This document shows positions 6,507 to 59,245 of a stretch of DNA of 64,000 nt, one piece after another. Both the position numbers and the translations under genes were made by a program. Every line of letters starts with the position of its first letter. Position 1 is the stretch's first letter. The stretch comes from Takakia lepidozioides. Lineage: Eukaryota; Plantae; Bryophyta. Location of the stretch: the NCBI GenBank assembly GCA_030704615.1, contig CM060731.1, positions 7,502,001 to 7,566,000 on the forward strand, written 5' to 3'. Below the pieces are notes generated by a model. The model was not told the DNA's origin. It saw only the letters and a list, made by a program, of their open reading frames with translations, and ran no database searches.

Positions 6507-7332
<826 letters not shown>

Positions 7333-7495: not shown

Positions 7496-7850
7496 TGATA
7501 AACAAGCTAAAGACACACACTCTCCACACAAGAAACAACATGAATCCATCGCTATCACTCTTAAAAACAGAAGTCGAGCCAGGGGCACCCCAAGCTACAG
7601 GGACTCCACCCCACAACAACCTACACTCCCATCATAAGCACTCTCAGTCCTAAACGATGCGGGAGCTCGGTCGCGCAGGCTCAACTCGAGAGAGATGAGC
7701 TGCGCGACTGCCGCTCTCGTGAAGATAAGACGGGTCAGGTGTCAAACTAAACTTGACACCTGATTTAACACTTGACCTAAATCCAAGTGTTAAATACAAA
7801 TAACTAGCTTTATTCTAGCTAGTTTCACACTGTGCTTATTTAACTTGACA
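7496..7850 (-). mobile_element. 5' terminal repeat A1 of the gypsy element (displaced, inverted)
   Basis: Reverse complement of 55004-55360 with about six substitutions and two small indels by eye. Begins TGTC and is flanked by GGTA (7851-7854 reverse complement). Confidence 0.9.
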
Positions 7851-7854
7851 TACC

Positions 7855-8770: not shown

Positions 8771-8773
8771 TCA

Positions 8774-9195
8774 CTGGAAAAATGGCGCCGAATTTCCGAT
8801 TTTGGTGCCAGTCAGATCTGGTACTTAGCCATTTTCGGCCCCGAACTGGAAAATGGCGCCGAAAAAAAAAAAAAAAAACAAAAACGCCATTTTTCTTGTT
8901 CGGGGCCGAAAACGGCTAAGTCCCAGATCTGACTGGCACCAAAATCGGAAATTCGGCGCCAATTTTCCAGTTCTAGGCCCAGTCAGATCTGGGACTTAGC
9001 CATTTTCGGCCCCGACCAGGAAAAGTGGCGCCGAAAAAAAAAAAAAAAAAAAAAAAAAACGCCATTTTTCCTGTTCGGGGCCGAAAACGGCTAAGTCCCA
9101 GATCTGATTGGCACCAAAATCGGAAATTCGGCGCCATTTTTCCAGTTCTGGGCCCAGTCAGATCTGGGACTTAGCCATTTTCGGCCCTGGACTGG

Positions 9196-9238
<43 letters not shown>

Positions 9239-9365
9239 GGCATTTTTCCAGTTCGGGGCCGAAAACGGCTAAGTCCCAGATCTGACTGGCACCAAAATCG
9301 GAAATTCGGCGCCATTTTTCCAGTTCTGGACCCAGTCAGATATGGGACTTAGCCATTTTCGGGCC
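8774..9365. repeat. About 180-bp tandem units with internal inverted repeats and poly(A) tracts
   Basis: ggctaagtcccagatctgactgg / ccagtcagatctgggacttagcc arms around GAAATTCGGCGCC. Units start at about 8886, 9061, 9241. Related sequence occurs at 59230-59355. Confidence 0.9.
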
Positions 9366-9595
9366 CAACCTAGGAAAATGGTGGCGAAAATGGTTTACGA
9401 GTGAGTGGTCGCATTGTAAGTTGCCTCCTGATTTTGTGAGGCACCTCCTCTCGCTCTTTTATTTCATTGAAAGACCGTTTCTGCTTCTGCTGGTATTGAC
9501 ATTCTTCAAGTGGATTTGTTCTTACTGTAGGAGGGACGTCTACACCGCAGTTCATGGGCAGGAGGAACGTGCATTTTTTTGCCAGGGGAGATTTC

Positions 9596-32068: not shown

Positions 32069-34135
32069 TCCCTGCCTCCTTCAGCTATCCCTGCCCTGAC
32101 AAACAATAATGTATAAATCCTCTCCTCTTGCTGCTAGCAAACACACGACAGACGGCGACGACGACCCAAATTTTATCTAGCAAACACCCCAACCTACTTG
32201 AGACACTACTTCCTATGCTGAATCACTGACAAGACTTTGAAAATGTCTTGGGAAGAGAGGGAGGATCACTACGAAAGCATTTCACCGTATCTTGTTGCCT
32301 GCTTCTGCTTTAACATAACAGGCGTTCACCTTTCTGTCTCGATTGTCCCACAATTGACTAGGGATTGAAGAATATTCCTTCCACAGCTTCCCCTCCTCAC
32401 TGTTATTTGTTTTTGGATATTTGCCTGCAACCCATTGGCTGTAACGTGTCAAAAACACTCGGAACCAGCATGGATACACTCGATGAGCTAACTTACAATG
32501 ATTAGAAAAACTAAGGATAATATGATAAGAGGACAAAACAAGCCTAAACAAGTTGAAGAAGAAGGCACCCTCACCACTTTGTGCTTGACCGTGTGCCATG
32601 GAAGCAAACATTTCTTTAACCCAAGGAGGATTCAACCAACACTCAGTCCAAAGGACCTCTTGTACAGACTGCTTATGTTTGTAGTCTGGTGATCTTGGAT
32701 TGATCTGTCAAAACCACCAGGGTGCAGCTGAGCAGCCATAGTTTTAAGCACATCGTCCTAACACCCAGCAAACCCTTCCGGTACCTTGTAAAGTAACAGG
32801 AAAAATCTTGGGCAATGCATTTTCATGGCTTGCTTAGGACGAACAAACTATGAAACCGACAGGAAGAGTCACTTATGCAGAACAGACAAACTCCTTCACA
32901 TCATGCCTGCAGAAAGCTGCACCTTGCCATTCCACCATTGTGAAGGATCTTTAAAGCACTCTTGCCAGCACTGTTCCATGCTCCATGGTTGACCTTCATT
33001 CCAGATACTCCAAGAGCATCAAAACTTTGATAGGTTCTTTTATGGGGAGTATTAGTGTAGTTCTTGACAACATCCATGCAAGTCACTCTGGGCTCAATCT
33101 GAAGTAGCACCATGAGGAACATACAAGTGTATCCACACTTGCTAAATAAGCTTGTGCATTACACGGTTGCCCCTCTAGTAAGGCTCATTGTGAGTCACAC
33201 TCACTTGTGTCCTCAAGGTTCAAAGGACCTCCACCATCTGCGCCAGAATCAAAACCACAATATGATATCTTCCCGCCATCACCACCATACTGTTCTCGAC
33301 CTTATGTTAGTTTTCTTTCGCCCAATGAGGATTGAACCAACCCCTCTATCCACATGACCTCTTGTATACACTGTAGTATGGAGATTGTGCATTCACTGTG
33401 AGAACCACCAGGATACAGATGAACAACCACAGTTATTCCAAGCCAACTCTCCCCAGTACCTTTCCCACTACAGTGGAGAATCCTTAGGCAACCTACTTTC
33501 TCGCCCTGCTTGAATAAAATTTCCTACGATAATGATAGTAAGTTCTGCTTTTTCAAAACAAACCGAGATTCAAAGTCAACTCAACAACAAGGGGTATAAT
33601 CCAGTCCACCAAATATCATTACACCAGAGTCCTCAAAATCCTTCTATAACGGACTACTTCACTCCAAATGAAGAAAGCGCACCTTGCTACCGCTGTATTC
33701 CCACCATTGTGAAGGATCTTCAAAGTACTCCTGCCATTCCATGCTCCAGCGTTGACCTACATTCAACAAACCAGAAGGTCGAAGAGGACGGTTAAGTCCT
33801 TATCTACTTCATCGACCAAATTAGATTGGTTTGGGCTCCCAAACCTGGATCCTACAACGCACACAACACAGCAAATTCAGAAAAGAAACCGCAGAGCATT
33901 TCGTATTATTACCTAATTTCATTGACATTCCCAAAGGTTTGGGAAGCGCCATAGCCACCATTTGCAAGGTACTCCGTTCTTGGCGCATTGCCAAACGGGA
34001 TGTCGCTATGTGCTTCCCAGCCCAGCCCTCTAATCCGCACGATGTGAAGCCTCTCCAATGACCGAATTGAGAAGACGGGGCCCTGGCTATGGAGTCCGCA
34101 TGAGCACTTGGGAGGACGCCGGAGCACGTTGCCAT
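32052..34135 (-). other. Upstream exons of the PPR-DYW gene: transit peptide and PDF-motif exons, apparently damaged
   Basis: ATG at 34135 (MATCSGVLPS...). Exons end WQEYFEDPSQWWEYSGSK|GT (about 33680), WQECFKDPSQWWNGK|GT (about 32923) and LWKEYSSIPSQLWDNRDRK|GT (about 32330). Apparent frameshift just after the acceptor at about 32052. Confidence 0.6.
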
Positions 34136-39434: not shown

Positions 39435-39892
39435 GTCTTGCATGCTAGAGTAGACATGTTTCAACTTGCTGACACTCATGGCACATACATTTTCATTCAG
39501 AAATCAAGCAGCTTCCCTGTGCCATATGGGGAATATACAGGCTTCGATAATCTTCTGTTAATGTTATTTGCAATTCACTGCCAGTATGCTGGGACGTGTC
39601 CTTTGTCGTATGGATTGCTGTTTGCACAAGGTGCAGTATGCAAATGCTGGAATGTGCAGTAGGACCCTTCCCACTGGGACACAGAACTAGCAATCTTGTA
39701 AAGGCATCACATTTGCAGAACAGTAACAATGTATTTGTAGCAAATTGGAGTCTTCTCATAAAGGTGGACGAAATTCACATGTAGCCATGGCGATGCGGCA
39801 CCACCAAGTGTATAATTCCTCACAAAAAAATAGGGTGCAAGAAGATGAATGTAATATAATTGCCACTTTCTCTCCTTCCCGAATGTGGAATG

Positions 39893-42800
39893 TCAAGCAG
39901 TCCGACCAGTATCCTGCCGTAGGGCCTTGTGCAGCTCGTTGAAACTCAGTGTTGGAGCATGGATGAACACGTCCACTGCGGATATGCAACTCATGCGCTT
40001 CATAAAAATGTAATAAAGGTGTTTTGCAAGGGACGTATGCTGCATTCCTCGATTCCATAACAAGGAAGTCCTCACAGTTGCAAGCTGGGTACTGTGAAAC
40101 CGTGATTGCATACACGACACTGCGCGCAGCAGACCCGGCTGTTGACAACTGAAATATGCGCCCCATCCCGGGGTGAGGAACATCCCTGCAACCTTGCACT
40201 ATGCAGGGCATTGCAAGAGCGTTGGCCATCCTGGTGTCGTTCGCCTTTGTTGGTGGCCGCCGTCTTTTCAGTTTACCCCACCGATGGGTGGGCCAAGCTG
40301 CGGGGTCACCCACCGGTATGCGGGGCGAAGAGCTTCTCGTGGGAGGAGGATGACGATTGGGAATTGGATTTCGTGGAACGTCTGTCCTCTCCACCAGTCG
40401 AAACCCTGCACTTCCTAGAGCGTCTACCTCCTCCAGGGTAAGATCTGTACCAGTTGCCACAGGCCAGACTGCCGGTGGTTCAGGCATGCCTTGTACACCA
40501 TACTTGGGCTTGCCGAACACACACGACATGATGTCGTGCCTGCAGAACCAAAACTCCTTCAGTGTGGCCTCCACAAACTTTGTGCACACAAATCTCCCTG
40601 TGAAGCAAGGGGCAGGCACACCGCCCTGCGGGCTCCTCCGAATCATCTCATTGCATCTCTGGTTGGTGTCGACACGAACAGCACAACATTTGCCACGAAA
40701 TGTCGGACGGGTCCGTGCAATTCTCCACTGCGAGGCCGACACATCTCGCTCCACGATTGGAATGTTGTATTGGGTAACGAAAACAGGAGCAACATGCCCA
40801 TCCTCGGCATGTTGTCCCGAGTCTGGCAGCGATTCCATGGATGCTGCAGGAGAGGGGGTACGAGTCCTGCTTCGTGGAGGCGTGGGACGCAACATCGTTG
40901 CGCCCCGAGGTTGAGTGCGGATGTTCATATCTGATCTCCATGAATCCCCATCCCCTCCGGGCATGTCCTCAATTCTTCTCTTCACCGGCCGGCTGCGGAC
41001 ATCGCCCTCCAGGCAGTTCCCGTTCCCCCGACTGTGTAACGGCGTTGACCTTATAGTTTCCCGCAATGCAGCAGTCCATTTTTTGGGATCGGTCGAACGA
41101 TGCGCCGCCCTCATCAGCATCTCCTGCCTGTCTGGTCCGATACCCCATTGCTTTCCTCCCAGAAACTGGTAGTAATGAGATTGTTGCATGATGGCCCTCA
41201 CAATATCTTCTGTTGTTGCTGTCAACATGTCAACGAGATGTGCTGCAGAGGAAGCACGCCAGGAAGAGTGCACCGATTCGGCCATGTTCGTCGTCGGATA
41301 TCCGTGTCATCCTCCAAGCTCATGTCCTGTTGAAGGAAATTAGATATGTCACCGATTGTGGAGAATGTCCAAGCACAAAACAGAACAATTGTCAAGTACA
41401 GAAATGTGTTACCTGTCTCATGTAGTCTCCAAACTGGCGGAATCTATAATGCCACCACGCAAGCCACGTTTGCAGTTCTGGCTGATCTTTCACATCCACT
41501 GCCCCTGAAGACACCCACCAGGCGCGTATGGTTGCAAACTCGGTCTCCGCCTCGTCGATGGAATTCGCATTTTTCCACGCTAGGCACATACTGATATGAT
41601 CCTGCCGGTGGCGTGACGCCACGAACCTTTTCGTGTTTTGCGTCAAACTCTGCATGAAGTGGAACCCGCAAGATCTCTCATTTCCTTCCATTGGAGTCTT
41701 TGGGTCGTCCCCATATACCCTCCTAACTGCAGCCCAGTTTGCCTGGGCATTGTCAGCCATGAAGCCCCTAAAATCGGGAGGGGGCAACTTGGCTCTCGCC
41801 ATTTGCTCATTAATTCCGCGCCACATATGCAACTCCGAATCTGTGTCTTCTCCCTTCGTTTCGCAGATAACAATGGTCATCAACTTTCTGCAATGTGGGT
41901 CGTATACATGTGCCCCCATTGTCACCCAATCGTGGTTGGTAATTCGCCGGATGTGGTCAAACATGACCCAACAATTTGAGAGGTCTCCACTGATCATCCG
42001 CTTCACCAAATCGACGCCGCTCCCCGGTCCGCACGTTGACATCTTAAATATGAAGCACTTGTCCATCTCCGAGCCTTGACCAGGAAAGAAGCTGCCTTGG
42101 ATGAAGTCGTAGCCGCATGTGCGTTTCACTTCCAAGATGGAGTGCATGTCTGATCCTCTTCCGATTCATTTCTTGCAGCTGACAATGTGGTTCCTGACAT
42201 TGGGGCTGCACACATGGGGAGACAGCTTCCAGCAGGTCCTTCATGTCCCCCTCGCCCAGCTTCTCTTGTGCTTCCGTCCTCCGACATTATTCTGCCAATT
42301 GCAATCCTATGTGCCGATGCGAGCTGTATCTGTTTTGGTTTTGCACCCGGCCTCAACCTCACCTCCTCCTTGATAATATCCTGGGCTTGTTGAAAAGCGA
42401 CTCTGCAATTGCCTCTGGCGAGGGGGTGCTCATGCTTTCCGATGTGAATGCATGCTCTGGTGCACGCTGGGCCGACGGTCCCGACGTAGTACTGCTTGGC
42501 GTTGCACACTGCCATGCACGTAGGGGCTGCGTTGCAATGGGCACACTTGAACGTCCCTGCAGGAACTCTACCTTGAGGCCAAAATGGGGTCGACGAATTG
42601 CCAATCCAGTCAGTCTCATTCCTGGTGCCTTTGCTAGTGTAATGGTAACATGTGCTCGAGAAACATTTAAGATGCCCAACACACAATACATATCTCACTC
42701 GAACTCCATCACCCAGGTTGGACGATGAAGTTTTGGTGACACACCAAGGGTGGCCGTCATGTTTCCTGTTCATTCCTGCGAGCATGCCGTCTGGGCCTGC

Positions 42801-43497
42801 GCCTGCCGGCACTGGAGGGAACTCGTAGATAGCATTCCCATCCACAACATCAGGCAAAGTTTCCACAGAATGGATTGGAGTTTTGTCGTAATCAAGCCTA
42901 AGAAGGTCACTGGAGCGGGAACCCGTTGTCTTCATCCTCCGCAATATGTCGATTACTGAGCGGACAGAAGTTGAGTCAGACGGTGTATGCTGAACACTCC
43001 TAGTGACGGACGACTTCGAAACATACGATGGAAGGACCATACAGTCTTCATCGTCACTGGATAAGTCCTGGACGACTGTTTCCCTGTTTTCCTGATTTCC
43101 CTTTTCACATGTTTGGGCTTCTCTGCTTGTGAAGAGGTGCCCACATCCTTCACATCTTGCACTCCAGACCCTCTTGTGGAAGGAGGATCAACCAAGTTCC
43201 AGCGTGGGAACTCTTTAGGCACGATTTCACCAATGGCACTGTACCGGATGGATTCAGAAGCTGGGAGCCGCCACTCTTTGCCTTTTCCGAAATCTGCATG
43301 CAGAATGACACGGCACTTTCCACAAAATTTCCATAAGCATCCTTCGTCTCCTCTTCCAAAAACACCGTTCCAGGGCGGAGCCCGAACTTCACACACAAGT
43401 ACTGCTCAGTGACAATCGCAAATCCTTGGTCGCAGGGTATTTTAGCTTTCAGAGAATCAGGATGGAAGTACACGTTGACCCAAACACGGGAGTCCAT
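39893..43497 (-). pseudogene. GCM-like zinc domain + MULE DDE + SWIM transposase
   Basis: CVGHLKC...C...KCAHC...C...HIGKHEHP; WVMFDH, FMADNAQAN, SCGFHF, NMAES; SWIM CNCEDF...PCKH. One intron at about 41330-41409; several frameshifts. Confidence 0.85.
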
Positions 43498-43559
43498 TTT
43501 GAAGACGGGACCTCTCGGTACGCTCCGCAACGAAGTCCTGCAATGAGAAGAGTGTGTCG

Positions 43560-44322
43560 TGCCGCTCCACACATGAATCCCATGCCTCCCATATCTCCTC
43601 CCTCAGGAGCAGGAGGTGGACCATCCGGCCTTAGAGCCGGTACCACCTGAGCTGTAGCCATGGCAGCGAGCCTCCGCTCTAGCTGCTGAAGCCGGTTGGC
43701 CATGCCTTGGTCAACACCCTGACCTCCACGTCCTTGGCCATGTTGAGGTTGCCCTTGGCTTGCACCTCGTGGCTGGCCACCTCGTCCTCTCTGGGCTGCT
43801 CCACCTCACCCCCGGCCACCATTGTTCCTTTGGAACTGGCCTGGGTGCAACTCAGGATGCAAACCATAACACTGGGCGTCTCCATGCCCGTGCTTGCCAC
43901 AATACCCACACTGCAACTGTGTAGGCTGTGCATGTGCCGGCCCTTTGCCTCCCTCTGGGCAATCCTTCTTGACATGGGGTCCTCCACATGTCCAGCACAC
44001 CACATCCGCCCGTTGTTGGCCAGCAAATGAAGGGAGAGACCCCTGCATCTGAGGTCCTCTCTGCCCTTCCCTGAGCTTCACCTGAGCCCCCTTGTTGCCT
44101 TGAGCACATTGAGGTAGTGGTTGGCTAGGAGCACTACTCCCCCTGGTGTCTCCTTAGAAAATTTCACCATGACCACTCGTTCCTCCACCATGTTGAGCTC
44201 TATCCGCTCTGCCAGCAAAAACACATTTGCTAAGGTGGGTTGGGCCGCTTGTAGGAGAGTTGCATCCCGCACCCTTCTCCTCAGCTCCTTGTCCAATATC
44301 CCATACCAGAATTGGACTGCCC
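43560..44322 (-). mobile_element. Inverted, diverged gag fragment of the same gypsy family
   Basis: QFWYGILDKELRRRV, CWTCGGPHVKKDC, CGYCGKHGHGDAQC, MANRLQQLE. Homologous to about 48200-48970. Confidence 0.9.
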
Positions 44323-44690
44323 TCACAGCCCGTCACAGCCCCAAAGGCCTCATGCACAGCCCCTCACAGCCCATCACAGCCCCAAAGGCCACGGGCACAG
44401 CCTCTCACAGCACAGCCCGTCACAGCCCCAAAGCCAGGGGCGCAGCCCGTCACAGCCCATCACAGCCCCAAAAGGCCACCGGCACAGCCCCTCACAGCCC
44501 ATCACAGCCCCCAAGGCCACCGGCGCACCGTCACAGGCCCTCACAGCCCGTCACAGCCCCGAAGGCCACCGGCACAGGCCCTCACAGCCCCTCACAGCCC
44601 CGAAGGCCACGACATAGCCCCTCGCAGCCCGGCACAACCCGTCACAGCCCTAAAGGCCACCGGCACAGCCCCTCACAACCCGTCACAGGC
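44323..44690. repeat. (N)TCACAGCCC minisatellite
   Basis: Many 10-11-bp CACAGCCC units interspersed with AAGGCCACCGG. Confidence 0.95.
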
Positions 44691-47401
44691 CCATCCATGG
44701 CCGCTCTGGCAGTTTAGCCATTTCTCCAAGGGGTTTAGCCACGCCAAGCTAGGGTTTGTGTCTCTTGGACTCTAGGCTTCTTTCCACCGAGCTATGGCGG
44801 TTGTGAGGAAATCAGCAAGGTATTCTTGCTCTTTCGGCTCCCACACACCACCATAGTAGCCTTAAGCCATGAGGTGGTTGCCACACATTGGCGAAGATGA
44901 GTGCGAGAGACGGTTGATCAGCGAAGGGAAATGAGGCGATAGCCTTACGCAGTCTGCAGTGTTGGCCAAGGACGCCTTCAAGGAGCAGGTGGGTCAATTG
45001 ACAGGCAGCCCAACTGATTCAACTTCTACTTCAAGGCCTCAGCAAGGGGAAGGCGTTCTGAACAAAGTGGCTGGCACCATTTCGCAATTTGTACAGTATG
45101 TGAAGAGTTCCTTAATGCCCAGTTCAGCAGCCCCTGCCAATCGCCCCCTACGACCACTATCAGCACTTGAAAAACGGACAGTCTCAGTTATGAGTAGAGG
45201 AACAGGAGCTATAAGATCAAGCCTTGCGGATGTTGTGGGTGCCGTGCTTGTCCTTGTGTCGCCAGCAAGAAAGCCCTGTGTGTTTATGCTGGGAGGCGAA
45301 TACACCTCTGATACAGTGTCTGCCACAGGCACTTGAGAGTGGAGCTCTGCATCCCTTAGAGAACTCCCAGAACTTCCAGAATGGTCAAACTGATGGTGAG
45401 AGTCCATAACCACGCCATCTGCAGATGCTCGTGATACACTCACCTGTTCTTTTCCTTCATCTGTGATACTTCCTCTTTTTTTCCGGTTATGCTCCTCGCT
45501 GCCTGAACTTGACCATGAGATTGAATCATCATCTTCGGAGTCTGACACAGCTGGTCGCCTATTGGAAGTCACTACAGCAGCCAGTATTTTGGCAGTGTTT
45601 CCATTTACTCCATCTGCTCCTTGAGTCTCCTCTGTCACCTCCATGACAGCAACAACAGATCCTCTAATCACTTGCACTTAAGAGGCTGAGTTGACAGTCC
45701 GTGCCGGATCTATCCCTTGGCTGGTTAAAGACTGTTCAATGCCTCCCAAGGGACTATGAATCTCACTGGCGAAGTCCTGTCGGGGGGAACGGCCTCGGGA
45801 ACCCGTAGATAACCTGGGAACAGGTTGTAATGGCGAGAACGTTTTGGTGTTAAAAAATAAATAAAAAATAAAAAAAAAAAAATAAAATAAAATTTGGTGT
45901 TGTGTTTAAAGAGCCTGGTTGGTCATATCTTTGTCAAATGCTCCGTTTGACTCAGTTTTTGAGGGGATAGCTGCAGAAAGGGGAATCTACCTATCTAGAT
46001 TTGGTTTTTGTTTTTGGGACTCTGCTAGAAATCTATGGAATTTTTAGAGTGTGAGTGTGTCATGAAAGACCCACAATCCTGTTTCTAGAACCTGTTCTGG
46101 TCTACATGAGAGATAAATCTGGGGATGTACTCCTTGTATGGCTGGGGGAAATGAGGACGTAATTGAAGGGCAGGTCTCTTCTCTTAGTCTGTGCACACAA
46201 AGGGACAAGATTTATGTTTCCCAAGGAACTCAGACTGATTTGAGTGGAGAACAGTTGACGAGTTGATTGCATACTGGGAGTCAGGCATTAGCAGTAGACA
46301 ACAGACTGCTATAGTTGGCATTGAGGGCCTCAATATCGCCTTGGACAGTCAGAACTCTGTTGAGCCAGCAGTTTTGCAGCTGTAGGTGAAATACCAAAGT
46401 GGGTGAAAGCTAGGCTTGGAACACAGCCAAAGACAGCCCCGGGGACCAAGGTGTTCAGCCACAAGGCCGTGGTGTACTGGAGCAGAGGAGCAGGAGCTAC
46501 ACAAGTTTGTGCAATCAGACATGGTTGCAGCCCGGATACGCTCTGCACAGGGCAACCACGAGCGGGGGTTCATTAGCAATGACATGTTTGTTGTGCGTGA
46601 AGGAGATGCAGTCATTCGCAATGAGGACACCCGCAACCGTCTCAAAGCTTTCGAGTTGAGAGACTATCAGACCCTACCTTTGTTTTCTTTAGTGTTCAGT
46701 GAGCGGGAGATAGGGGAGTATTGCTTTGTCTCTACCTGGCAGAAAGAGGAGGAGGTTGGTTAGAGCGAGCTACTGTAGCTTGGGGACAAGGTTAGTGGCA
46801 GGTTTCTGGACATAGATATACCTCCTACACCTTACCATCATGCAGAGCGAGGCACTTTGAGAGAAGTCTGGCAGTTGATAGCATAGATCAGGATTAGATC
46901 TTGCTTGGTCGGGCTTCTATTCTTCCCCTCCATCTCTGTACTATTTTCATTACCTTGTACTTGTAGTTGCCAAAGCCTCTCTTGGTGGAGGCCAGTCAGT
47001 CCGGGTTTTGGGCTGGGCTATTCTGCAGGATCAGCATTGCAGCTGGATTTTGGTGTGGGGGTGTTGATGTTTTGATTTCTTTGTTTGGATCCCCCCACAC
47101 CTGCATGCTTGACTGTGCGCATGTTGGTTTTGTGTGGGCGCTTGCTTTCATAGGGATTAGGCCGGATTTGATCACCGGTCAATCCTAGAGTATGCTGTCG
47201 GTGGTGAGGCTGGAGTGATGACCAGCAAGACCACCAGTGTTTCTTCTATGGTGAGGCTGGGTTGATGACCAGCCAACCATAGGAGTTCTTGCGGTGGATG
47301 CAGGTGCAGGTGCCCTGAGCCATTGGGATATGACCCTTAAACTGCAACAGGTGCCCACCCGTGTCACTATTAGAATTAGTACTAGAGCCTTATAGTGTCA
47401 C

Positions 47402-48970
47402 GTGGAGGAGGTGCACATTGTGAGTGTCATCACGGAGTTACCCAAGGGTTTTGAGGGGAGTACGGCTACAGGCAGTAACAGTGAGAGTGGGTTCACAAGA
47501 CGAGGTATTCGGTTCAGACCACCTTCACCTCCACCCTCAACTACTGTAGAGTCAGACACAGACTCGGAGGCTTCATCAACAGGTGTGCACTTTCATTCGC
47601 CATTGTTGTGGGACGACATGGAGGAGATGTATGGAGCTACCAAGGGGCCTCGTAGGTACTCTGGAGCTGTGGGCACAATCGAGTTGGATGACTTTATCCA
47701 GGAGTTCGACAGCTGGTGTGATTTGCAGCAGATGCGCAATCCACAGCTATTCACCCCATTCATGGCGTGGAAGGGACTGTTCCAGCATTTGGAAGGCCCG
47801 CCTATGGACGATTACCACGAGTTCAGGCGAGGACATGAAGCAGAGATTGAGGAGTGGAGGATGTATTGGTCACCTGACTACGTCTCCATTACTCGAGGCA
47901 CACGCGACCAGTAGCTGCATCAGTACCAATAGCTCCCACTGCCAGCACTAGTAGTGGACAAGTAGTGCCAGGTACTTCTGCAGAAGGTGCTACTACTCCT
48001 CCTCCCACGACTACAACACATGTGCCTAGATTCAACCCGGTGGTGGAGTTCTTCCAGGAGTTGCGGAGGAACTACCAAGGTGTACGACAGAGAAGCTGCG
48101 AAGTTTGCAAGACTTCCAGCGCAAACCCAGTGAGAGCCTGCGAGAGGCGTACACTCGTATGAGGCGCTTGATAAGTGTGACCCAAGGGGTTACTGAAGCT
48201 CAGGCAATCCAGTTTTGGTATGGAATTCTGGACAAGGAGCTCAAGAGAAGGGTGCGAGATGCAACCCTGTTACAAGCAGCCCAACCCACATTAGCAGATG
48301 TGTTTCTGCTGGCTGAGCGGATTGAGCTCAACATGGTGGAGGAGCGAGTTGTTACCATTGGATTTGGCAAGGACATGCCATGAGGCGCAGCTGCAGCCCA
48401 CAGGCACAAGGGACTGCCCAACAGCGTGGTCAGGGGGCAAGGTTGCCCAGCCCAAGTTCCATGGAGCTTACAGGGGACCTCAGGTGCAGAGGCCCGTGGC
48501 ATCTTTTGCAGGCCAACAGCAACCAGGGGTGATATGTTGGACATGTGGAGGACCCCATGTCAAGAGAGATTGCCCAGAGAGTGGCAGAAGGCCGGCACAA
48601 GCACAGCCTGCACAGTTGCAGTGTGGGCATTGTGGCAAGTATGGGCATGGAGATGCCCAGTGTTATGACTTGCATCCTGAGTTGCGCCCAGGCCAGTTCC
48701 AAGGGAACAATGGTGGCCGGGGGCGAGGTGGACCAGCCCAGAGAGGACGAGGTGGTCGGGCACGAGGTGCAGGCCAAGGGCAAGCTCAACATGGCCAAGG
48801 ACGCGGAGGTCAGGGTGTTGACAAGGCATGGCCAATCGGCTTCAGCAGCTAGAGCAGAGGCTCGCTGCCATGGCTATAGCTCAGGCGGTACCGGCTCCCA
48901 GGCGGGATGGTCCACCTCCTGCTCCTGAGGGAGGAGATATGGGAGGCATGGGATTCATGTGCGGAGCAGC
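47402..48970 (+). pseudogene. gag with two zinc knuckles
   Basis: LQDFQRKPSESLREAYTRM capsid-like motif; CWTCGGPHVKRDC and CGHCGKYGHGDAQC; RGG tract. Frameshifts. Confidence 0.85.
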
Positions 48971-49519
48971 ACTACCACTAGAGCAGGTGGAGTCTGCTGC
49001 AGCCGTGACTCGAGGAGCAGCACGAGTTCCTGAGCCACGAGGTGCAGAGGTGGAGTTGGATCCACAACGTGGGGAGGCAAGCCGTCAGGCAAGGCTGCCT
49101 CAGTCATTCACCTTGGCGGAGACAGTGTCAACGCCATCCATGGCACCTAGTTCTCGCCCGACTGTTACCGAGGCGGAGGTTACTATGCCATTGGGGAGAG
49201 CTACACGTGCAGCACTGACACCTGCTGCCAAGGCTAGTGCAGCCGGTGTGTTGTTGGGGGCAGCCACCTCTGTGTGTCAAGCCCCACTGTTCTCGGCAAC
49301 CATGATTGCGACGCCGGGGGTGAGACCAGCTGCAGTGTTCAGACTAGCAGCAACACTCTGTGAGAGTGGGGAGGTCACTTCATCTTCTGCGGAGTTAGTG
49401 GAAGTGTAGTGGCAGAGGGATCCTCGGATTTGAGGGTCAAGACTGCCACGGCTGCGCCATGGCAAGCTGCAGCTGCCAGGTTGACGGAGCTGCCAGCTAG
49501 GCCAGCCTTTGAGCGCGCC

Positions 49520-49980
49520 ATGGTGACACCTGGAGTTGTCTTGTTAGACAACCAGGGAGGCATTTTCACTTTGAGTGGACCGGCAGGCAAGAAGTACCGG
49601 CCACTGCGGGTCTTGTTGGACTCAGGAGCTCAGCCACTGATGTTGGGCAGAGCTGCTATTGCAGGTTTGGGCCTCATGGAGGCGGATATGGAGCCTTGTC
49701 CTTTCCAGATACAGACATCTCTGGGAGGATCAGAGCAGGCTCGGGGCATGACACGGCATCAGTTGGCCATTAGACTGCAGCCGGATCATCCTATCGATGG
49801 CTCAGTGATGCGAGCCAAGGCCATTGTGACAGACGCGGTCTCTTACGATGTCCTCGTTGGTGGGGCAGTGTTATACCCCATGGGCTTCACCCTGGACTTT
49901 TGGGAGGAGTCAGCATCCTACAGGCCTGGATGGCAGTCAGGGGATGGTCGCCGTGCACAGCTCCCTGTGACATTCATTGG
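49520..49980 (+). pseudogene. Retroviral-type aspartic protease domain
   Basis: VLLDSGAQ ... YDVLVGG. Confidence 0.85.
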
Positions 49981-50319
49981 GGGTATTGCGGCTGCCCAGC
50001 GGGGCAAGATGCCAACACTAGCCGCCTTTACAGCTGCAGTTAGTTGGCCTGGAGAGTTGCTGGAAGGCAATGCCCATGCAGAGGATGTGCCACCTCCAGC
50101 AGAGCAGGATGACATGCATGGTACGGCGGAGTTGCCTGCCATGGTTGCTCACACTCCATTGTGGGGTACGAGCAAGGATTTGCAGCAGGCTGCTGATGAC
50201 GGGTGCAACAAGCTGGGGGTAGAGCTTTTGTACCGTCAGGAGAGGAGGAGAGTGCGGTGATTGCACCAGGACCACCTCAGTTGTCGCCATTGGACACCAC
50301 ACCTCTTGTGTGCAGTGCC

Positions 50320-51250
50320 CGGATGAAGGCATATGCCTTCTGGACTTGTTTGGCGGGATCAGCACTGGATTGGCTGCAGTGCTGCAGGCAGGTGTACGAG
50401 TTCGACGTTACCTGTATGTGGAGAGGGATGAGACTGCACGACGCGTCTCACTGCGCCATGTTGCTCAGTTGGTGCAGCAGTACCCTGAGTTGTTGCCGGT
50501 GTCTGCAGTTCGTGGATACCAACAGCCTTGCCAGCAGACATTTCGTTGCTGGGGCGCAGGATTTGGAGCGGGTTGGCTCCATTGATCTGGTAGTGGCAGG
50601 TTGGCCCTGCCAAGGGCATTCATCAGCCGGGCATGGCAATGGATTGCGAGACTCGAGGACGGGTCTGTTTTGGGAGATGGTGCGGATTTTGCGCCACTTG
50701 CAGCTTCATCAAGCTGTATCTCCGCATACATCTTGGAGAATGTGCCACTGATGGGTGATTCTCGGGCCAGGGTGATGGCCAGTGTGCATCAAGTCCGGTC
50801 GTGGCTTGGGTCAGCCGCAGTGTTGCTGGATGCACTGCAGAGGGGTCACGGGCTCATCGTCCACGGCTAACTTGATGCCACCCGCACTGCTCAAGCGTGC
50901 ATTTGATGGGGTGGAGCGGCCAGCACACCTCACAGTGGATGGCATTTTGGACACAGGGAGGCAGTATCAACGTGTGAGGACACCACGACCGTTCGCCTTT
51001 GACAGTGGTCAACAGGGTGGGTCAACCACGAGCAGCATTACCTACATGCTCAGCTTCCCAGGATCCCATGCTTTCGAGATGGTGTGGACCTGGCCTCCTG
51101 TGGGATGCTCAGTTGCAGCAGTTAGTGGAGCCCAATGCCGACGAGCGAGAGCGGGCTATGGGGTTTTCCACTGGGACCACGGCGGTGCCTTCTCTTTCTG
51201 AAGCATCACATCGTCAGGTGTTGGGGCAAGCAATGGATCTCAATGCTTGA
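50320..51250 (+). pseudogene. C5 cytosine DNA methyltransferase domain (DNMT3-like), frameshifted
   Basis: Motif I LLDLFGGISTG (about 50337), II YVERD, IV DLVVAGWPCQ (PCQ 50605-50613), GLFWEMVRIL, VI YILENV (50736), VIII AHRPR (about 50852), IX EPNADERERAMGF, X RQVLGQAM. Confidence 0.92.
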
Positions 51251-51649
51251 CTGGATTATCAGTTGGCTATGGCTGAGCAACGTAGAGTGCGGAGTGCACT
51301 TCCTTGACGGTCTCTCTGCCTATCGAGACGGACAGGCAGCGAGGGGGGCGAGCGGTGAGGACCACGGGGTATTGACATCCATGGCACACGTGGGAGGTGC
51401 TCGAGGTCAGAGGGAGTTGGCAGCCAAGGCCGCTGTGATGGATGAGGTCGGGATTCTTCTCGGGTTGAGGAGGTTCTCAGATGAGATGATGGGGAGGATG
51501 GGCCTTGTCATTGACTGAGCAGGAAGGGAGTAGTACTCAAGAGGTTGCAGCATAGCAACCACGGGACGGTCCTCTACCTCTAAGCCCACTGGACTTAAGG
51601 TTGCAGTTACAGAGGACAATTGGGAGCCTGATATTAGACCCATTGTCAC

Positions 51650-53010
51650 CGGAGGAGAGAGACGACGTATACGGCGGTTCCTGAGGGCTTACAGGAATTG
51701 CTTTGCCTTCAGTTTGAAGGACTTGGGAGCACTGAAGGGTCAAGAGATCCGTATTGAGTTGGCCACTGACACGCCAATCTTTCGGAGACCCTATAGATAC
51801 AGTGACATGGAGAGGTCTTTGATTCAGATGAGGACTCAAGATCTCTGGGAGGCAGGTTTGGTGGAGCTCTCTGGTGGAGAGTATGCTTCAGCCAAGTGAT
51901 GCCAGCCAAGAAGGATGTCTATGGCAATTGGACGGAGAGACGTATGTGCGGTGATTACCGCCTGTAAATCATCAGACCAAGTCGATAGGTATGCCATGCC
52001 CACACCAGAGGAGATCTTTGATGCCATTGGGCATGCCAAGGTCTTTAGCACTTTGGATTTATGATCCGGATATCACCAGTTGCCGATCAAAGAGGCGGAT
52101 AAGCAAAAGACGGCATTATGGGGGATCAATGAGCACGGGAAGGATTGCCTATACCAGTGGCGGTTCTTACCATTTGGGCTTAAAAACGCTCCCGCTGAGT
52201 TTCAAAGAGTCATGGACAGGATTCTAGCAGGGGTGGAGTTTGCTCGGTGCTATATAGATGACATCATCATCTTTAGTGCTACGGTGGAGGAGCATGAGAG
52301 ACACCTTCAGGGGGTATTTGAGCGCTTGAGGACGCACGGATTGAAGTTACATCCAGGCAAGTGCAAGTTTTTCCACAACCAGATTGAGTATCTGGGTCAC
52401 ATGATATATCCTGGAGGATTGGGGGGTACAGCAGACTAAGGTAGAGTCCATTGCACAGGTTCCACGCCCCACGGATGTGAGCCGAGTTCGAGCTTTCATG
52501 GGGTTAGCAAACTATTACAAACGGTTTGTTAAGGGATTTAGTGCCATTGCAAAGGCTCTAACCAAGCTGACCAAGGTGGACCAGGAGTGGCAGTGGGAAG
52601 ATGAGCAAGAACAAGCTTTTCAAGAGCTCAAGGCGAGGTTGACCTCGGCGCCCATCTTGAGACGACCTATCAGGGGCGTCCTTTTCAGCTGCATACAGAT
52701 TGGAGCATGCTGGGGCTTGGAGCGGTGCTCACACAGGTGGATGATGAGGAAGAGAGTTCGTAGTGGCTTATGCTAGCCGCTCGAACAATGCTGCAGAGTC
52801 TAAGTATAGCTCATATGAGGGAGAATGCTTAGCTGCAGTGTGGGCCGTGACACACTTCAGGTGCTATCTATACGGCAATCTCTTCACCCTTGTCACGGAT
52901 CACCAACCACTCAAGTGGTTGATGGAGTCAGACAAGCTTACGGGGAAGCTTGCACGGTGGGCACTCATCCTTCAAGAGTATGACTTTCAGGTGGTGCATC
53001 GACCCGGTTT
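51650..53010 (+). pseudogene. Reverse transcriptase and RNase H
   Basis: RMCGDYR, FSTLDL.SGYHQ, LPFGLKNAPAEFQ, CYIDDII, YASRS...YSSYEGECLA, LVTDHQPLKWL. Confidence 0.95.
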
Positions 53011-53330
53011 GGTCAATCGCACATGCAGATGGGGCAATTCCATGCACGAGCCAGCAGATGACACTGGAGCTCGGTGGCATGGTGAGACGGACGAGGAGAT
53101 GGTGCCCGATGGCATGCATCTGCATTTCTGTGTATCTTGGCAGCGGAAGGCCGGTTGGACCTGCAACAGGGATGACTGTAGATCAAGTGTCTGAGACCCT
53201 GAGGCCAGCAATGAGCAAGTGGCGCCAAAGATATACATGAGGATTCAGTTGTGTTGGACTACCTCCGCACTGGAGACACTGCAGCCACTGTGACTGCCAA
53301 TGAGAGAGATCGGATCCTACACGAGCCAAG

Positions 53331-54669
53331 ATGCTCAAGTGGGAGGGGACACACCTGCTCCGAGTGTGGGAGGATGGTCGAGTGAGGATTGTGCCTCACC
53401 CAACACAGCGGGCACGGTTAGTGCGGCATGCCCATGAGGAGTTGGGGCATTTTGGGGTGCGACGCACTCATAGTCTATTGCAGGGGCAGTATTGGTGGCG
53501 TGGTATGCACATAGAGGCGCAACAATTTGTGGCTAGGTGCATGGTGTGTGACAGGGTGTGTGCTTCATTCAACGCCCCTACTCCACATTTGCACCTCTTC
53601 CGATCATGGGATTGGCTACAGGTGGAGTCTTGACTTCGCAGGGCCGTTGCCATTGACATGCGCCACAACAAGTACGTGTTGGTGATGGTGGAGCACTTCT
53701 CCAGTGGATTGAATTGGTTCCATTGCCTGATAAGGCTAGTGAGGAGCTGCATATGCATTCTTGGATTGTGTGCTTAGCCGATTCGGTGCTCCAGCTGAGG
53801 TACTCACGGACCAAGGGAGAGAGTTCTTGGGGGAGTTTCAAGTTTTGTGTGACAAGGCCTTGATAGACCACCGCACCACTTCTCGAGATCATCCTGAGGC
53901 CGATGGCTTGGCAGAGAGAGTTGTTCAGATAGTAAAGAGGGGTTTGCGCAAGTATGGCTTGCAGAAGGGACACCTAGGAGATTGGGACCTTCAGTTACCC
54001 TGGTTAGCCATGGGCTACAGGTTCAGCAAGCAAGCATTACTTGCTTCCTTCTCACCATACTTTCTTCTCTTTGGCCGAGAGCCGGATTTGCCTACATCTA
54101 TTCGCAGAGAAGCTGCTACAGTTCTTAACCTTGACGATCCGGACGTGTGGGCACGTGCATGTGAGCAGCGTGCAGAGTTGTTCAAGAGAGTCATGCCCAT
54201 GGCTTTCGAGAACCTTGTCATTGCCCAACACCGTGATACGTTGAGGTATGCTACCATACGTGGTGGGGGCTATCATCTTGGGGTTTGGAGATTCAACCCT
54301 GGTGACTATGTCTATCTGCAGCAGACTGCTCCTACGACCCTGGATGTGACTGCAGGACGTGTTATTTTGAGGGTTCGAGAGGTCTTGCCCTCAGGCGTCT
54401 TGGTCTTGGAGGGTCGGGATGGCATAACTTGGAAGGACCATGTGCGTAATTGTGCGCCATGTCACCTTCCGAATGTCGATGGCAGGATTGACCCAAACCT
54501 GGCAGTGGTATCTGCAGATTTGAGGTGCATGTTGTGTGGGTTTGCTAGAGGGGGAGCCACCATGCTGGTGTGTGATCGATGCTCTCGAGGTTGGCATATG
54601 GGATGCTTGACACCACCTTTTGAGATGGTTCCGGATGGGGATTGGTTATGTCCACATTGCATTGGATAG
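53331..54669 (+). pseudogene. DDE integrase with C-terminal PHD finger
   Basis: HEELGHFG...CMVC; VLTDQGREF; HPEADGLAER. C4HC3 PHD at 54526-54660 (CMLC...VCDRC...WHMGCL.PP...PDGDWLCPHC). Confidence 0.95.
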
Positions 54670-54905
54670 TGAAAGTGGATACACCATGGAAGGCTAACAA
54701 GAAACGCAAGGCCCAGCTACTAGGAGACCTTGAACACACGAGATCCTGGCTCAAGTTCACAGATTGCAACGATGGGGCTACACTTGTACCCGGCCTCTTG
54801 GTCGATAGAGTTTGAGCACAATAGGGACAGTGATAGAGGACTTAGTACGGCTGTGGCTATTACATCTTGTAGCTATATGGAGGTAGAGGGACCTATCCAC
54901 CAGCT

Positions 54906-54915
54906 AGGGGGGCGA
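54906..54915 (+). promoter_or_regulatory. Polypurine tract
   Basis: AGGGGGGCGA one base before TGTGGTAGAC (54917). Confidence 0.7.
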
Positions 54916-54916
54916 T

Positions 54917-55446
54917 TGTGGTAGACTACTTTATTGTGCATATATGTGTGGTGTGGTTTGGACAGCGATGTAGTTGTGTTGCGATACGTATGCGCACGAT
55001 AGCTGTCAAGTTAAATAAGCACAGTGTGAAACTAGCTAGAATAAAGCTAGTTATTTGTATTTAACACTTGGATTTAGGTCAAGTGTTAAATCAGGTGTCA
55101 AGTTTAGGTTGACACCTGACCCGTCTTATCTTCACGAGAGCGGCAGTCGCGCAGCTCATCTCTCTCGAGTTGAGCCTGCGCGACCGAGCTCCTGCATCGT
55201 TTAGGACTGAGAGAGAGTGCTTATGATGGGAGTGTAGGTTTGTGGGGTGGAGTCCCCATAGCTTGGGGTGCCCCTGGCTCGACTTCTGTTTTTAAGAGTG
55301 ATAGCGATCGATTCATGTTGTTTCTTGTGTGGAAAGTGTGTGTCTTTAGCTTGTTTATCATTGTGGTAGACTATTTTATTGTGCATATATGTGTGGTGTG
55401 GTTTGGACAGCGATGTAGTTGTGTTGCGATACGTATGCGCACGACA
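54917..55446 (+). repeat. 3' terminal repeats B1 (54917-55001) - GC - A2 (55004-55360) - T - B2 (55362-55446)
   Basis: B1 and B2 are 85-bp direct repeats with two mismatches; A2 matches 7496-7850. Confidence 0.92.
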
Positions 55447-56700
55447 GGTAAGTCGGATCGCTGGCGTATGGATATTCGGCGCCGAATTTCCATTCGCCAG
55501 GTATTTCGAAGCGCTGAATTACCTTCCTGCAGGTAATTCTGAGCGTGTCCGATTGATTTTTCGGAGAAAAACAAACCTAACTGTTTGTTTTGTGCTGAAG
55601 TGCACTTGTAGACACGTTTTTCTTGGAATCCTTGACTGCTAGAGGCAAATCGGAACAGCCTCGGACGGAAATTCGGCGCCGTTTTTCCATTCTGGGAGGT
55701 TTTTACGACTTCCTTTGAGGGGGCCCCGATGGAAATTCGGCGCCGAATTTCCATCCGGGGGATGGTCTCTGTCGGAGAGGTGCCGGCCTCCGCCGCTCTG
55801 TTGGATATTCGGTGCCGAATTTCCGTCCGGGGTTGAAATATGACGGCCAGGTGCCGGCCTCCTCCCCCCTCCCTGACTGCATTGGAACGGCCCTGGATAG
55901 AAATTCGGCGCCGTTTTCCATCTGAGGAGGTTTTTTATGTCGGCCAGTTTTCGGCCTGACCCCCCGACGACTTCCTTTGGGGGGGCCCGGATGGAAATTC
56001 GGCGCCGAATCTCCATATAGGGGATGCTCTCTGTCGAACACGTGCCGGCCTCTACGCCCGAGGCGACTTCATCCGGGCGTCCCCTGTTGGATATTCGGTG
56101 CCAAATTTCCGTCCGGGGGTGAAATGTGACGGCCAGGTGCCGGCCTCTCCCCCCTCCCCGACTGCATCCGAACCGCCCCGGATGGAAATTCGGCGCCGTT
56201 TTTCCATCTGGGGATGTTTTTATGCCGGCCAGTTTTCGGCCTGACCCCCCGACACGACTTCCTTTGGGGGGGCCCGGATGGAAATTCGGCGCCGAATGTC
56301 CATCCAGGGGATGTTCTCTGTCGCACACGCGCGCCGGCCTCTGCGCCCGAGGCGACTTCATCCGGGCTTCCCCTGTTGTATATTCGGTGCCGAATTTCCG
56401 TCCGGGGGTTGTAATGTGAGGGCCAGATGGCGGCCTTTCCCCCGAGCCGACTGCATCCGAAAGGCCTCGGATGGAAATTCGGCGCCGTTTTTCCATCCGC
56501 GGAGGTTTTTAGGTCGGCCAGTTTTCGGCCTGACCCCCCGACAGGACTTCCTTTGGGTGGATCCGAATGGAAATTCGGCGCTGAATTTCCATCCGGGGGA
56601 TGTTTTCTGTCGGACAGGTGCCGGCATCTCTGCCCCAGACGACTTCATCCGTGCGGCCCCTATTGGGTATTGGGTGCCGAATTTCCATTCGGGTGTAGTA
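55447..56700. repeat. GGAAATTCGGCGCCGAATTTCC palindrome array with about 230-290-bp higher-order units
   Basis: GAAATTCGGCGCCGTTTT at about 55669, 55900, 56185, 56475, each unit holding three palindrome variants. Its start continues the unit broken at 7851. Confidence 0.92.
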
Positions 56701-56990
56701 ATGTGATGGCACGGTGCCGGCTTCTCCCTTTAGCCGACATCATCCGGACGGCCCCCCACTTTCTTACTGCATACCGTTGGCAGTTATTGCGCAAAGACCA
56801 GGGGCCGCATTCCGGAGACAAGGTTCATTAACACTCTGACTCTGGATTTTTGAGATAGTTGGCTCCTTGGATTTGGATCAGGCTTCGTCGCTCGGACAAA
56901 TCGGCACGCATTCCTTCCCATCGCTGCATCCCCCTTCTACCAGGGAGCTTCCCCGCACGCCATCCTGGCAGTCTTGTGTGCACATCTCCC

Positions 56991-59245
56991 ATGGCGGAAA
57001 ACCCGGCGCTACAGTGTACTGCCCTCCTCACGAGCATAGAGCTTCATTTCCATGCAGAGGGACATCTGCCGGTGATGGAGAAATATCTGTGCGTTCGATA
57101 CCACCTGAAACCGGGGTCGGTTTTTTTGGAGGAGGAAAGGAAGGACTCAAACAGCCTTGTTGTTGAGAGTATTGTTGTGCTCCACGATGATTTCGGCGGG
57201 GGAATGGCGAGTTCCACCATCGGACAGCGTCATATACAGGGCTGTCGGGGACTTCATTTGCCCGCCAAATGCACCTTCTATCCTGGCGCCTTCCACGAAA
57301 CAATCCACGAATCAGAGAGTGGCTACCTCAAAGAGAGAAGTCCGCAACGAAGTAAATCCAGAGCCGAACCCATCCATGAAGACGAGCGAGAACCGGGTTG
57401 TTCACAACCTGTCCGACTCAGACGAGGTCATGGAAGTTCCGAGGTCGTCCTGGAGATCAGGCAAGTCCTCAATGGACGTCAGTGGAGGAGGGAGTCATAT
57501 TCCCAGCACGAGCACCGCAATTCGATCTATTCTTGAAATTCTGCGAGGGCTTCACCTGGAGGGACACCGGTCGGAGCTGGCCGGGCTGGACTACAGCAAG
57601 TTTGCAATTAAATCGGTTACATGCCTTCCGCCGACGTCGACGGTAATATCTTCTTTGAGTTCCCTCCTCGGGCGGACTACTCGAGGGCGTCCGGAATGTT
57701 GACAGATATGGATAGAAAACATGACGGTCATCTTTGGTGCGTTACCAAAACCACCAGCATGAAGATGCTCGATGGTGTGCGGGTGCGCTACGTTGTTTGT
57801 GCGGGCGCGTTGCGGTGTTTCTCCCCAACTTGCTTCACTTTAAATCCAGAGGTCAAGGAACGAGACCGATTGGACGGGCACAGGTCATCAACCATTTCGA
57901 GCTCAGGAGAAGGTTCCGAACTCCACATTTAAGTGTGCGCATTGCAAAGAACCACCACACTGCATGTCTGTTTGTAATGCCAAGCAGTTCTATGTGTTGC
58001 ACCGTTTCCCTGACCTCACCCGAGCTTGAATACACGTTGGTTCCCATTGTCACAAATTGGCGAGGGGGAACTCGCGGGAGGCTGCCCACGAAGCAGAGCA
58101 GCTCGTTCAGGAGGAGATTAAGTTGAGACCGGGTGCCAAACCCAAACAGATGCAGCTCCAAGCCGCCCATAAGATGGCATTGGCCAGAATTATGTCGGAA
58201 GACGGCTCCGATAGAGTTCCTCTCGACGAGAAGGAAATGGAGGCATTGCTGGAGTCGGTGTCCCACGTATGTTCACCGAATGTCCGAAACCACATTGTCT
58301 CATGCAAACAGAAAATTGGGCATGGCTCGGATATGCACTCCATTCTGGAGGTGAAGCGACGATGTGGATATGACTACATTCATGGAAGTAGGTTTCCAGG
58401 ACAAGGGGACTGAGGCAGATCGTTGTTTCGTATTCAAAATGTCCACGTGTGGACCTGGCAGCGGCGTCGAACTGGTCGACAAGATGACGAGTGGGGACTT
58501 ATCAAACAGTTGGGTCATGTTCGACCATATCAAGCGAATTACAAATCACCAGTGGGTGACAATGGGTGCACATGTCTACGTCACTCACTAATGACAATTG
58601 TTATTTGTGAGATGAAAGGAGAGGACACACAATCGGAGATACTTCTTTGGCAGGGAATAAACGAACAGATGGCCAAGGCGGGATTGCCCCTCCCAATTTC
58701 CGTGGTTTTCATGGCAGACAACGCACAAGCAAATTGGGCTGCCATCCGAAGGGTGTACGGGCAAGACCCCAATGTTCCCATGGAAGGCAAGGAGAGATCT
58801 TGTGGATTCCATTTTCTGCAGAGCCTTTCGCAGTACACAACCAGGCTCGTGGCGCCAGATTTCAGAGAGGAGCACCGTTCCATGTGCCTTGCGTGGAAGC
58901 GCGCTCCCACCTTGGATGATGCAGAGACACAATTTGCATGTATACGGGCTTGGTGGACATCGTCAGGTGCTGTAAGGAAATCAGACGAGGGAGCAATGGT
59001 CAGTTGGCTAGCATGGTGGCATTATCGTTTCCTCCAGTTCGGCGACTATATGCGGGAGGTGAGTTGCACAAATTTGCGTCCCGTTGAATATTATTCTTGG
59101 CCATATTTGTAACTTGCTTGTAACCTCAACATGTGCTTGTGCAGGAAATGTGTCTCGACTCCGACACCGACATGGCCACGACAAACATGGCCGAAAACTG
59201 GCTCCGACACCGACATGCCCACGACAAACATGGCCGAAAACTGGC
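56991..59245 (+). pseudogene. Second GCM-MULE transposase, truncated before the SWIM region
   Basis: Paralog of 39893-43497 (DRKHDGHLWCVTKT, FKMSTCGPGSGV, WVMFDH, FMADNAQAN, SCGFHF, TTNMAE) with the same intron position (59059-59144). Frameshifts. Confidence 0.88.

Follow-up and report, generated by a model that had tools for sequence, protein, structure and literature searches.

A conserved in-frame stop codon between a DNMT3-like methyltransferase and reverse transcriptase in a Ty3/gypsy retrotransposon family present in Takakia lepidozioides

A stretch of 64,000 nucleotides from Takakia lepidozioides (contig CM060731.1, positions 7,502,001 to 7,566,000, hereafter the window) contains a Ty3/gypsy retrotransposon with a DNMT3-like C5 cytosine methyltransferase (DNMT) behind its protease, and an in-frame stop codon that is conserved among its relatives separates this domain from the reverse transcriptase (RT). 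The initial annotation had stated that DNMT-bearing retrotransposons were already reported, and the Gypsy-DNMT3 kind itself is indeed published, as KnitGypsy-Dnmt3 (PMC5890265); the conserved stop between DNMT and RT is new. In the literature open to full-text search, mostly journals without subscription, we found no account of land-plant or chlorophyte members of the Gypsy-DNMT family and no description of a stop or of readthrough behind a Gypsy DNMT.

The element lies on the + strand and shows the Ty3/gypsy order of gag, protease, RT, RNase H and integrase. Its 5' internal region (45950..47395) has an approximate left edge, placed where contig depth climbs in the 45837-46173 bin in sequencing runs X1, X5 and X6; an A repeat sought near this edge gave no match nearby. 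The gag region (47396..48873), delimited by ORFs and tblastn, contains CCHC knuckles and a GR-rich stretch and is broken here; it matches residues 1-567 of the Marchantia protein P0011 (tblastn), and its Pfam match to Retrotrans_gag is weak and below the cut-off. The aspartyl protease with its linker (49364..50260; ORFs, Pfam, tblastn) bears the motif LLDSG, and its Pfam match over 49364-50257 is likewise weak and below the cut-off. After the DNMT (50328..51250) and the stop with the CAA CCA that follows it (51553..51561) come RT and RNase H (51562..53050; RVT_1 E 2e-26, RNase H E 2e-27), broken in the window copy, and an integrase (53304..54669) matched by H2C2 and the rve core, with a PHD finger at its end (E 4e-10). 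With the protease match upstream and RVT_1, RNase H, integrase and PHD downstream, the placement of the methyltransferase between protease and RT made in the initial annotation is borne out.

Seven C5-methyltransferase motifs were located on the + strand over nine frame segments (50328-51250), namely DLFGG at 50343, YVER at 50415, GWPCQ at 50599, ENV at 50736, HRPR at 50855, ERERAMGF at 51143 and GQAMD at 51224. Motifs I, II, IV, VI, VIII, IX and X are all intact and unpermuted, as first proposed, and the catalytic residues persist despite the frameshifts. Altogether 286 of the 319 positions of an intact relative can be read in the window domain, at 76% identity, and 50200-50748 matches Pfam DNA_methylase with E 2e-10, better than the curated cut-off. 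Contigs nearly identical to the window copy depart from it mainly through gaps; one comparison over 449 bases shows 3 gaps and 1 other letter. Many of its frameshifts may therefore be assembly errors. Matching to DNMT3 by sequence and fold was done on the relatives P0001 and P0169 and not on the broken window copy. The intact P0001 matched human DNMT3A with E 6e-12; its matches to DRM entries were weaker (1e-8 to 2e-4), those to bacterial enzymes weaker still, at E of at least 3.5e-4, and the structure model of the more distant P0169 (pLDDT 87.6) matched DNMT3A with E 7e-20 and TM 0.71, with DNMT3 in every row among the best 50 matches listed. The closest solved sequence and fold for these two relatives is therefore DNMT3, and not DRM, DNMT1, DNMT2 or a bacterial enzyme, which upholds the earlier reading of the domain as DNMT3-like rather than DRM.

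The methyltransferase is a family feature and is not peculiar to the window copy. With a 69-residue DNMT piece as the query, 45 of 426 candidate proteins were related at 65-88% identity, 20 of them named Marchantia polymorpha, three Calypogeia fissa and one Sphagnum troendelagicum; several relatives carry gag, protease and DNMT in a single protein. Of 276 stretches found by scanning metagenomes, 102 were confirmed; 80 loci were kept and called moss-like, a label that rests on visual near-identity and on 63 of the 80 loci scoring best to a Sphagnum protein among three named references with similar median identities. The contig on which a distant intact element (L081) was found has 9285 bases; it is assigned to a cyanobacterial metagenome bin and is most likely eukaryotic. 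A domain unique to this copy had been named at the outset as an outcome that would overturn the interpretation, and what we found is the same site in liverworts, in moss-like loci and in the distant intact element. In run X1, 81,862 contigs align to the element, a contig depth that is not a copy number, and cover over the DNMT is similar to that over the RT in runs X1, X5 and X6. A further run, X7, which may be RNA, covers 50555-51228 little or not at all and was given no weight in either direction. No relatives were found when viral contigs were searched with two queries. As a side observation, two intact Gypsy-DNMT elements (L081 and L082) stand in a bacterial genome record, most likely as eukaryotic contamination of the metagenome bin, and P0151 and P0368 are similar matches under other bacterial labels.

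Selection on the domain can be read at two depths. Between Marchantia P0011 and two distant relatives, identity is 49-52% in the DNMT, 45% in the protease and 23-31% in gag, linkers and tail, and the DNMT is thus kept as strongly as the protease. The dN/dS analysis proposed with the initial annotation was carried out and gave about 0.11 for the window against 75 moss-like loci, with dS saturated. Within the moss-like copies it gave 0.60 for the DNMT, 0.66 for the protease and 0.37 for the RT (250 random pairs each), as expected where post-insertion decay dominates.

The stop codon stands in the window as GCA TAG CAA CCA (51550-51561). The homologous codon is covered in 51 of the 80 moss-like loci and reads TAG in 34, TAA in 16, GAG in one and CAG in none, which makes a stop in 50 of 51 loci and in 42 of 43 once these are collapsed at 98% identity. 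A methylation and deamination hot spot turning CAG into TAG was ruled out as its origin, because 11 control columns with a CAG majority reach at most 30% stops and no CAG is seen at the stop column. In the moss-like loci the RT continues in the same frame, with FRRPY 210 bases further on, and two of these loci (L002 and L003) run without a further stop to the contig end. In L081, two ORFs of at least 1162 and at least 1047 codons lie in one frame and are split solely by TAG CAA TCA; protease and DNMT are encoded by the first of them, whereas RT, RNase H, integrase and PHD belong to the second. The stop is thereby present in three diverged lineages. No variant of 5% or more occurs at 51551-51562 in four runs, among the rows listed (40 of 41). 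Each of the four runs also shows other copies whose length from stop to RT is one base different from that of the window copy, which makes this distance a multiple of three.

Protein records show a similar division. Named gag-protease-DNMT proteins stop about 95 residues past motif X, and 36 of 44 protease-DNMT proteins that reach motif X end before the RT, though some of these ends may be contig ends or decay. The other eight continue into RT or RNase H, four of them being Marchantia gene models, and in distant relatives (P0309, P0059, P0384 and P0187) the DNMT shares one ORF with RT and RNase H. The view of the DNMT as part of pol therefore stood in one respect and failed in another: the domain is in frame with the RT, but the conserved stop cuts it off, and hence it belongs to a gag-protease-DNMT frame and not to an uninterrupted pol. 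That the stop is conserved and functional we regard as almost certain.

By analogy with known viral sites, readthrough at this stop is likely. The tobamovirus (type I) readthrough motif is UAG-CAR-YYA, preceded by A (PMC3542737), and the window and L081 have both this motif and a downstream ORF in frame. Only one of the 108 TAG triplets on the element's + strand is followed by CARYYA, and it is the stop at 51553. The moss-like copies have CAA CCC after the stop in 48 of 51 cases, one base off CARYYA at its last position. CAA stands directly 3' of the stop in all three lineages, whose flanks otherwise differ. The likeness to tobamoviruses thus comprises the A, UAG, CAA and YYA of the window and L081 and the polymerase downstream; unlike there, the carrier here is a retrotransposon, the moss-like copies have CAA CCC, and the readthrough is predicted. 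Murine leukemia virus, MuLV (PMC3542737), and Candida Tca2 (PMC2194720) also have a single in-frame stop upstream of the RT. Theirs comes after gag, whereas here it follows protease and DNMT, and no conserved pseudoknot or hairpin was found. We found no conserved RNA structure of this or another kind 3' of the stop in the window, 11 moss-like copies and L081; the structure z score was close to 0 in the window, lay between +0.6 and -1.4 in the 11 moss-like copies and reached -3 in L081 only. For Tca2, the flanks of the in-frame stop are described as giving no readthrough in yeast (PMC2194720). This case, the missing RNA structure, and the CAA CCC and nearby ATG of the moss-like copies all weigh against readthrough.

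The element works like KnitGypsy-Dnmt3 of Klebsormidium nitens and is probably its relative. Both have the Gypsy domain set and an unpermuted domain related to Dnmt3 whose key residues are conserved, and both show purifying selection and DIRS-like repeats in the order A-coding-B-A-B (PMC5890265). The integrase-PHD protein of the window shares 56% identity with one from K. nitens. In KnitGypsy-Dnmt3, however, the DNMT is described in one ORF with RT and RNase H, whereas a conserved stop lies between them here, and the host there is a charophyte alga, not a land plant. The portion of PMC5890265 available to us on KnitGypsy-Dnmt3 gives no position of the DNMT within the ORF, no PHD finger and no readthrough. 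Among the matches listed and 20 looked-up proteins, K. nitens was represented by the integrase-PHD match and by no DNMT. With the shared ORF lacking and no K. nitens DNMT retrieved, we do not class the element as KnitGypsy-Dnmt3 proper. Other retrotransposon-borne C5 methyltransferases are those of SymbioDIRS-Dnmt3 (PMC5890265) and the EpiLTRs (bioRxiv 10.64898/2026.05.21.726589). SymbioDIRS differs by its tyrosine recombinase; EpiLTRs likewise contain a chromatin-reader domain, but their DNMTs are sister to DNMT4 and accompanied by an adenine methyltransferase and a chromodomain, and the preprint sets them apart from streptophyte Gypsy-DNMT3.

A profile search extended the family to 288 clusters at E 1e-30 or better, in which the DNMT occupies two positions, either behind the protease or between RNase H and integrase. 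The second order, RT-RNase H-DNMT-integrase-PHD, was found in 51 proteins and then in 51 more, and the named members of this class are chlorophytes (Pleodorina, Tetrabaena, Haematococcus and Tetradesmus). REM1 of Chlamydomonas is described as PHD-bearing. In a FastTree phylogeny of DNMT domains (135 rows, element sequences only, midpoint root), from which domains below 250 residues, most DNMT-only fragments and most of the 45 protein matches were left out, all 102 after-RNase-H sequences fall on one side with support 0.90, and the window groups with Marchantia, Calypogeia and the moss-like copies in a clade with support 1.0. In an RT-RNase H tree (152 rows), all DNMT-before-RT fusions fall into a single clade (0.995) together with the window, Marchantia, the moss-like copies and a protein from Coleochaete, and the major split is shared by both trees. 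The two positions mean that the domain was either retained through rearrangement or captured twice. Two further observations concern these algal sequences: motif IV reads EC instead of PC in 107 versus 42 cases of the after-RNase-H class (P0091, P0123 and P0315, for example), and many algal element DNMTs are often absent from Pfam's precomputed annotation.

Two full LTRs around the coding region were not found; split repeats in the order A-coding-B-A-B are present instead. Five moss-like loci (L021, L051, L056, L058 and L071) have the complete order A1-coding-B1-A2-B2. These loci have TG..CA termini and, before B1, a purine tract nearly the same as the polypurine-tract-like stretch of the window (54899..54915, +); target duplications of 4 bases are exact in L058 and L021 and carry one mismatch in L056. 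The 3' end of the window element (54916-55446) consists of B1 (54916..55001), A2 (55004..55360, TG...CA, linked to B1 by two bases) and B2 (55361..55446), followed by GGTA (55447-55450) within a satellite unit, and A1 is not beside the element body. A lone A repeat lies on the - strand (7496..7850) and is preceded by GGTA; its flank and the 3' flank of the element are halves of one satellite unit. This repeat is, with fair probability, the A1 of the window element, moved by an inversion of about 38 kb or by a mis-join, and the competing explanation is a second insertion at a preferred site, or site-specific targeting of the satellite. Between the lone repeat and A2 there are 6 substitutions and 2 gaps, including a TG/CA pair (columns 271-272). 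The initial annotation had noted such a pair between two A copies; it does exist between 55004-55360 and 7850-7496, which we infer to be the A1 and A2 meant.

The B1-A2 junction (54995-55010 in the window; also in L058, L081 and L082) reads CA, two bases and TG. It forms a 10-base palindrome in L081 and L082, from which the window and the moss-like copies are off by a base or two. As it resembles joined element ends, we speculate that it may be the integrase cut site in a circular intermediate. Satellite arrays of several unit lengths, all built round a palindromic GAAATTCGGCGCCGAATTTC core, occupy 4500-6300, 7850-9400 and 55447-56800. A short frame (7140-7330, -), which lies some 170 bases past the lone A repeat, we take to resemble monodehydroascorbate reductase.

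Other features of the window were recorded alongside. In the element's 5' region, a broken reading frame (46100-46763, +) has high depth in the host runs; the ORF at 46407-46763 had no Pfam match and no counterpart in the listed moss-like loci of at least 8 kb. A second gag fragment of the same element family, 83% identical, lies at 43551-44321 (-) and ends at a tandem array of 41-50-base units (44319-44702). Two related multi-ORF, transposase-like stretches (39756-43187, -, and 57100-59100, +) show a 77% inverted match, and three ORFs of the former gave no match when scanned against Pfam. Two tandem PPR-DYW genes with 303-base repeats occupy 21899-32080 (-): one is an intact PPR-E-DYW gene of 1194 codons (28493-32080, -) with a duplicated N-terminal block, and its tandem neighbour is frameshifted. 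The intact gene in itself indicates that the host is a land plant.

Traces of methylation in the DNA were analyzed as well. For the element, the CpG observed/expected ratio is 0.49; three flanking stretches have 0.44-0.64, and two transposase-like stretches 0.71-0.86. Among the moss-like copies, C-to-T changes affect 0.20-0.21 of cells at CG, 0.23-0.25 at CHG and 0.065 at CHH, and this joint CG and CHG pattern is the one expected of host silencing. In moss, CG and CHG methylation is attributed to host enzymes and CHH methylation to host DNMT3b (PMC6453930). CpG loss was rejected as a sign of self-methylation, since the neighbouring DNA is depleted too and CHG mutates like CG. For the same reason the TG/CA pair, at first read as consistent with CG methylation, loses its value as evidence: CHG cytosines decay as fast as those in CG and host enzymes explain both, so the pair is uninformative on the element's own enzyme and its context. 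Host PpDNMT3b resembles the element's domain in being of the DNMT3 family and unpermuted, but it is a cellular gene and methylates CHH (PMC6453930), and hence a DNMT3 fold alone is no predictor of CG specificity in plants. In yeast, the retrotransposon DNMT3s of Symbiodinium produced CG methylation, and the domain from Klebsormidium was inactive, a result that its authors deem inconclusive (PMC5890265).

On these grounds we propose, with about as much belief as doubt, a gag-protease-DNMT element with a leaky stop that would make its methyltransferase at Gag-like amounts and likely methylate the new DNA copy in the particle. One transcript would give mostly Gag-protease-DNMT and, through low-frequency readthrough, a little full polyprotein, and the methyltransferase would accumulate at Gag-like rather than Pol-like amounts. 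The protease would free the DNMT inside the particle, where the new copy should be the only DNA; cDNA methylated before integration would then give an insertion that arrives marked. Such marking could let the new copy escape surveillance by the host or determine its chromatin state upon arrival, a role put forward by de Mendoza et al. for DIRS elements (PMC5890265), and the integrase PHD finger may read histone H3 tails at the target site. Given an active enzyme, methylation of the cDNA is the outcome we would rather expect, and self-methylation by the element, as suggested in the initial annotation, is plausible. Gag-level amounts are not required in every lineage, as the chlorophyte DNMT sits inside Pol and some proteins run on from DNMT into RT.

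The same architecture and stop would also suit an element that makes its RT and integrase through RNA splicing, from an internal promoter or by re-initiation. Ogre elements splice between protease and RT, and most moss-like copies have an ATG three codons past the stop. For Tca2, a junction promoter is described, as is an unexplained bypass (PMC2194720). However, neither the window nor L081 has the near ATG; their first in-frame ATG comes about 84 and 117 codons past the stop, respectively, in L081 already within the RT profile beginning at 94. Exactly one stop with an open frame on either side, and the CAA retained in all three lineages despite divergent flanks, also speak against such a route, which we consider unlikely. 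The methyltransferase might, in turn, have another job, acting in trans on host or integrated DNA, acting on element RNA, or serving as a structural nucleic-acid binder in the particle. Gag-level amounts would fit a structural or trans role, the Klebsormidium domain was inactive in yeast (PMC5890265), and EC replaces PC in motif IV of many algal relatives. Against this, both the window and L081 have an intact catalytic Cys, ENV, HRPR and SAM-binding motifs, the fold is that of DNMT3, and the domain is retained at both polyprotein positions, either of which would place it in the particle; we find this reading doubtful, if conceivable.

Much the least credible, and in our estimate highly improbable, is a piece of host DNMT3 captured by the window copy alone or decaying neutrally, with the stop as a mutation. 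The heavy frameshifting of the window copy and the dN/dS of 0.60 within moss-like copies would agree with it. A copy-specific capture is nevertheless refuted by the relatives, since liverworts, moss-like loci and the distant intact L081 all have the domain at this position, and by the stop column, where CAG does not occur; the similar cover over DNMT and RT (X1, X5 and X6) and the major split common to both trees likewise oppose it.

Detailed accounts of retrotransposon DNMT3s have so far come from dinoflagellates and a single charophyte alga. The leaky-stop reading can be carried further, tentatively, to the possibility that Gypsy elements with a PHD finger and split repeats form one old green-plant lineage in which an active DNMT3 has been kept from chlorophytes to land plants, that the domain was relocated from between RNase H and integrase to behind the protease, and that one branch added a virus-type leaky stop, which would raise the DNMT to Gag level and deliver pre-methylated DNA. 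The conserved stop predicts DNMT far in excess of RT, and self-methylation of cDNA becomes testable because the family is present in Marchantia polymorpha, a model with methylation mutants. If this extended proposal is true, the genes annotated in land plants as hypothetical proteins include many mobile de novo methyltransferases. Surveys of plant DNMT repertoires should expect element-borne copies.
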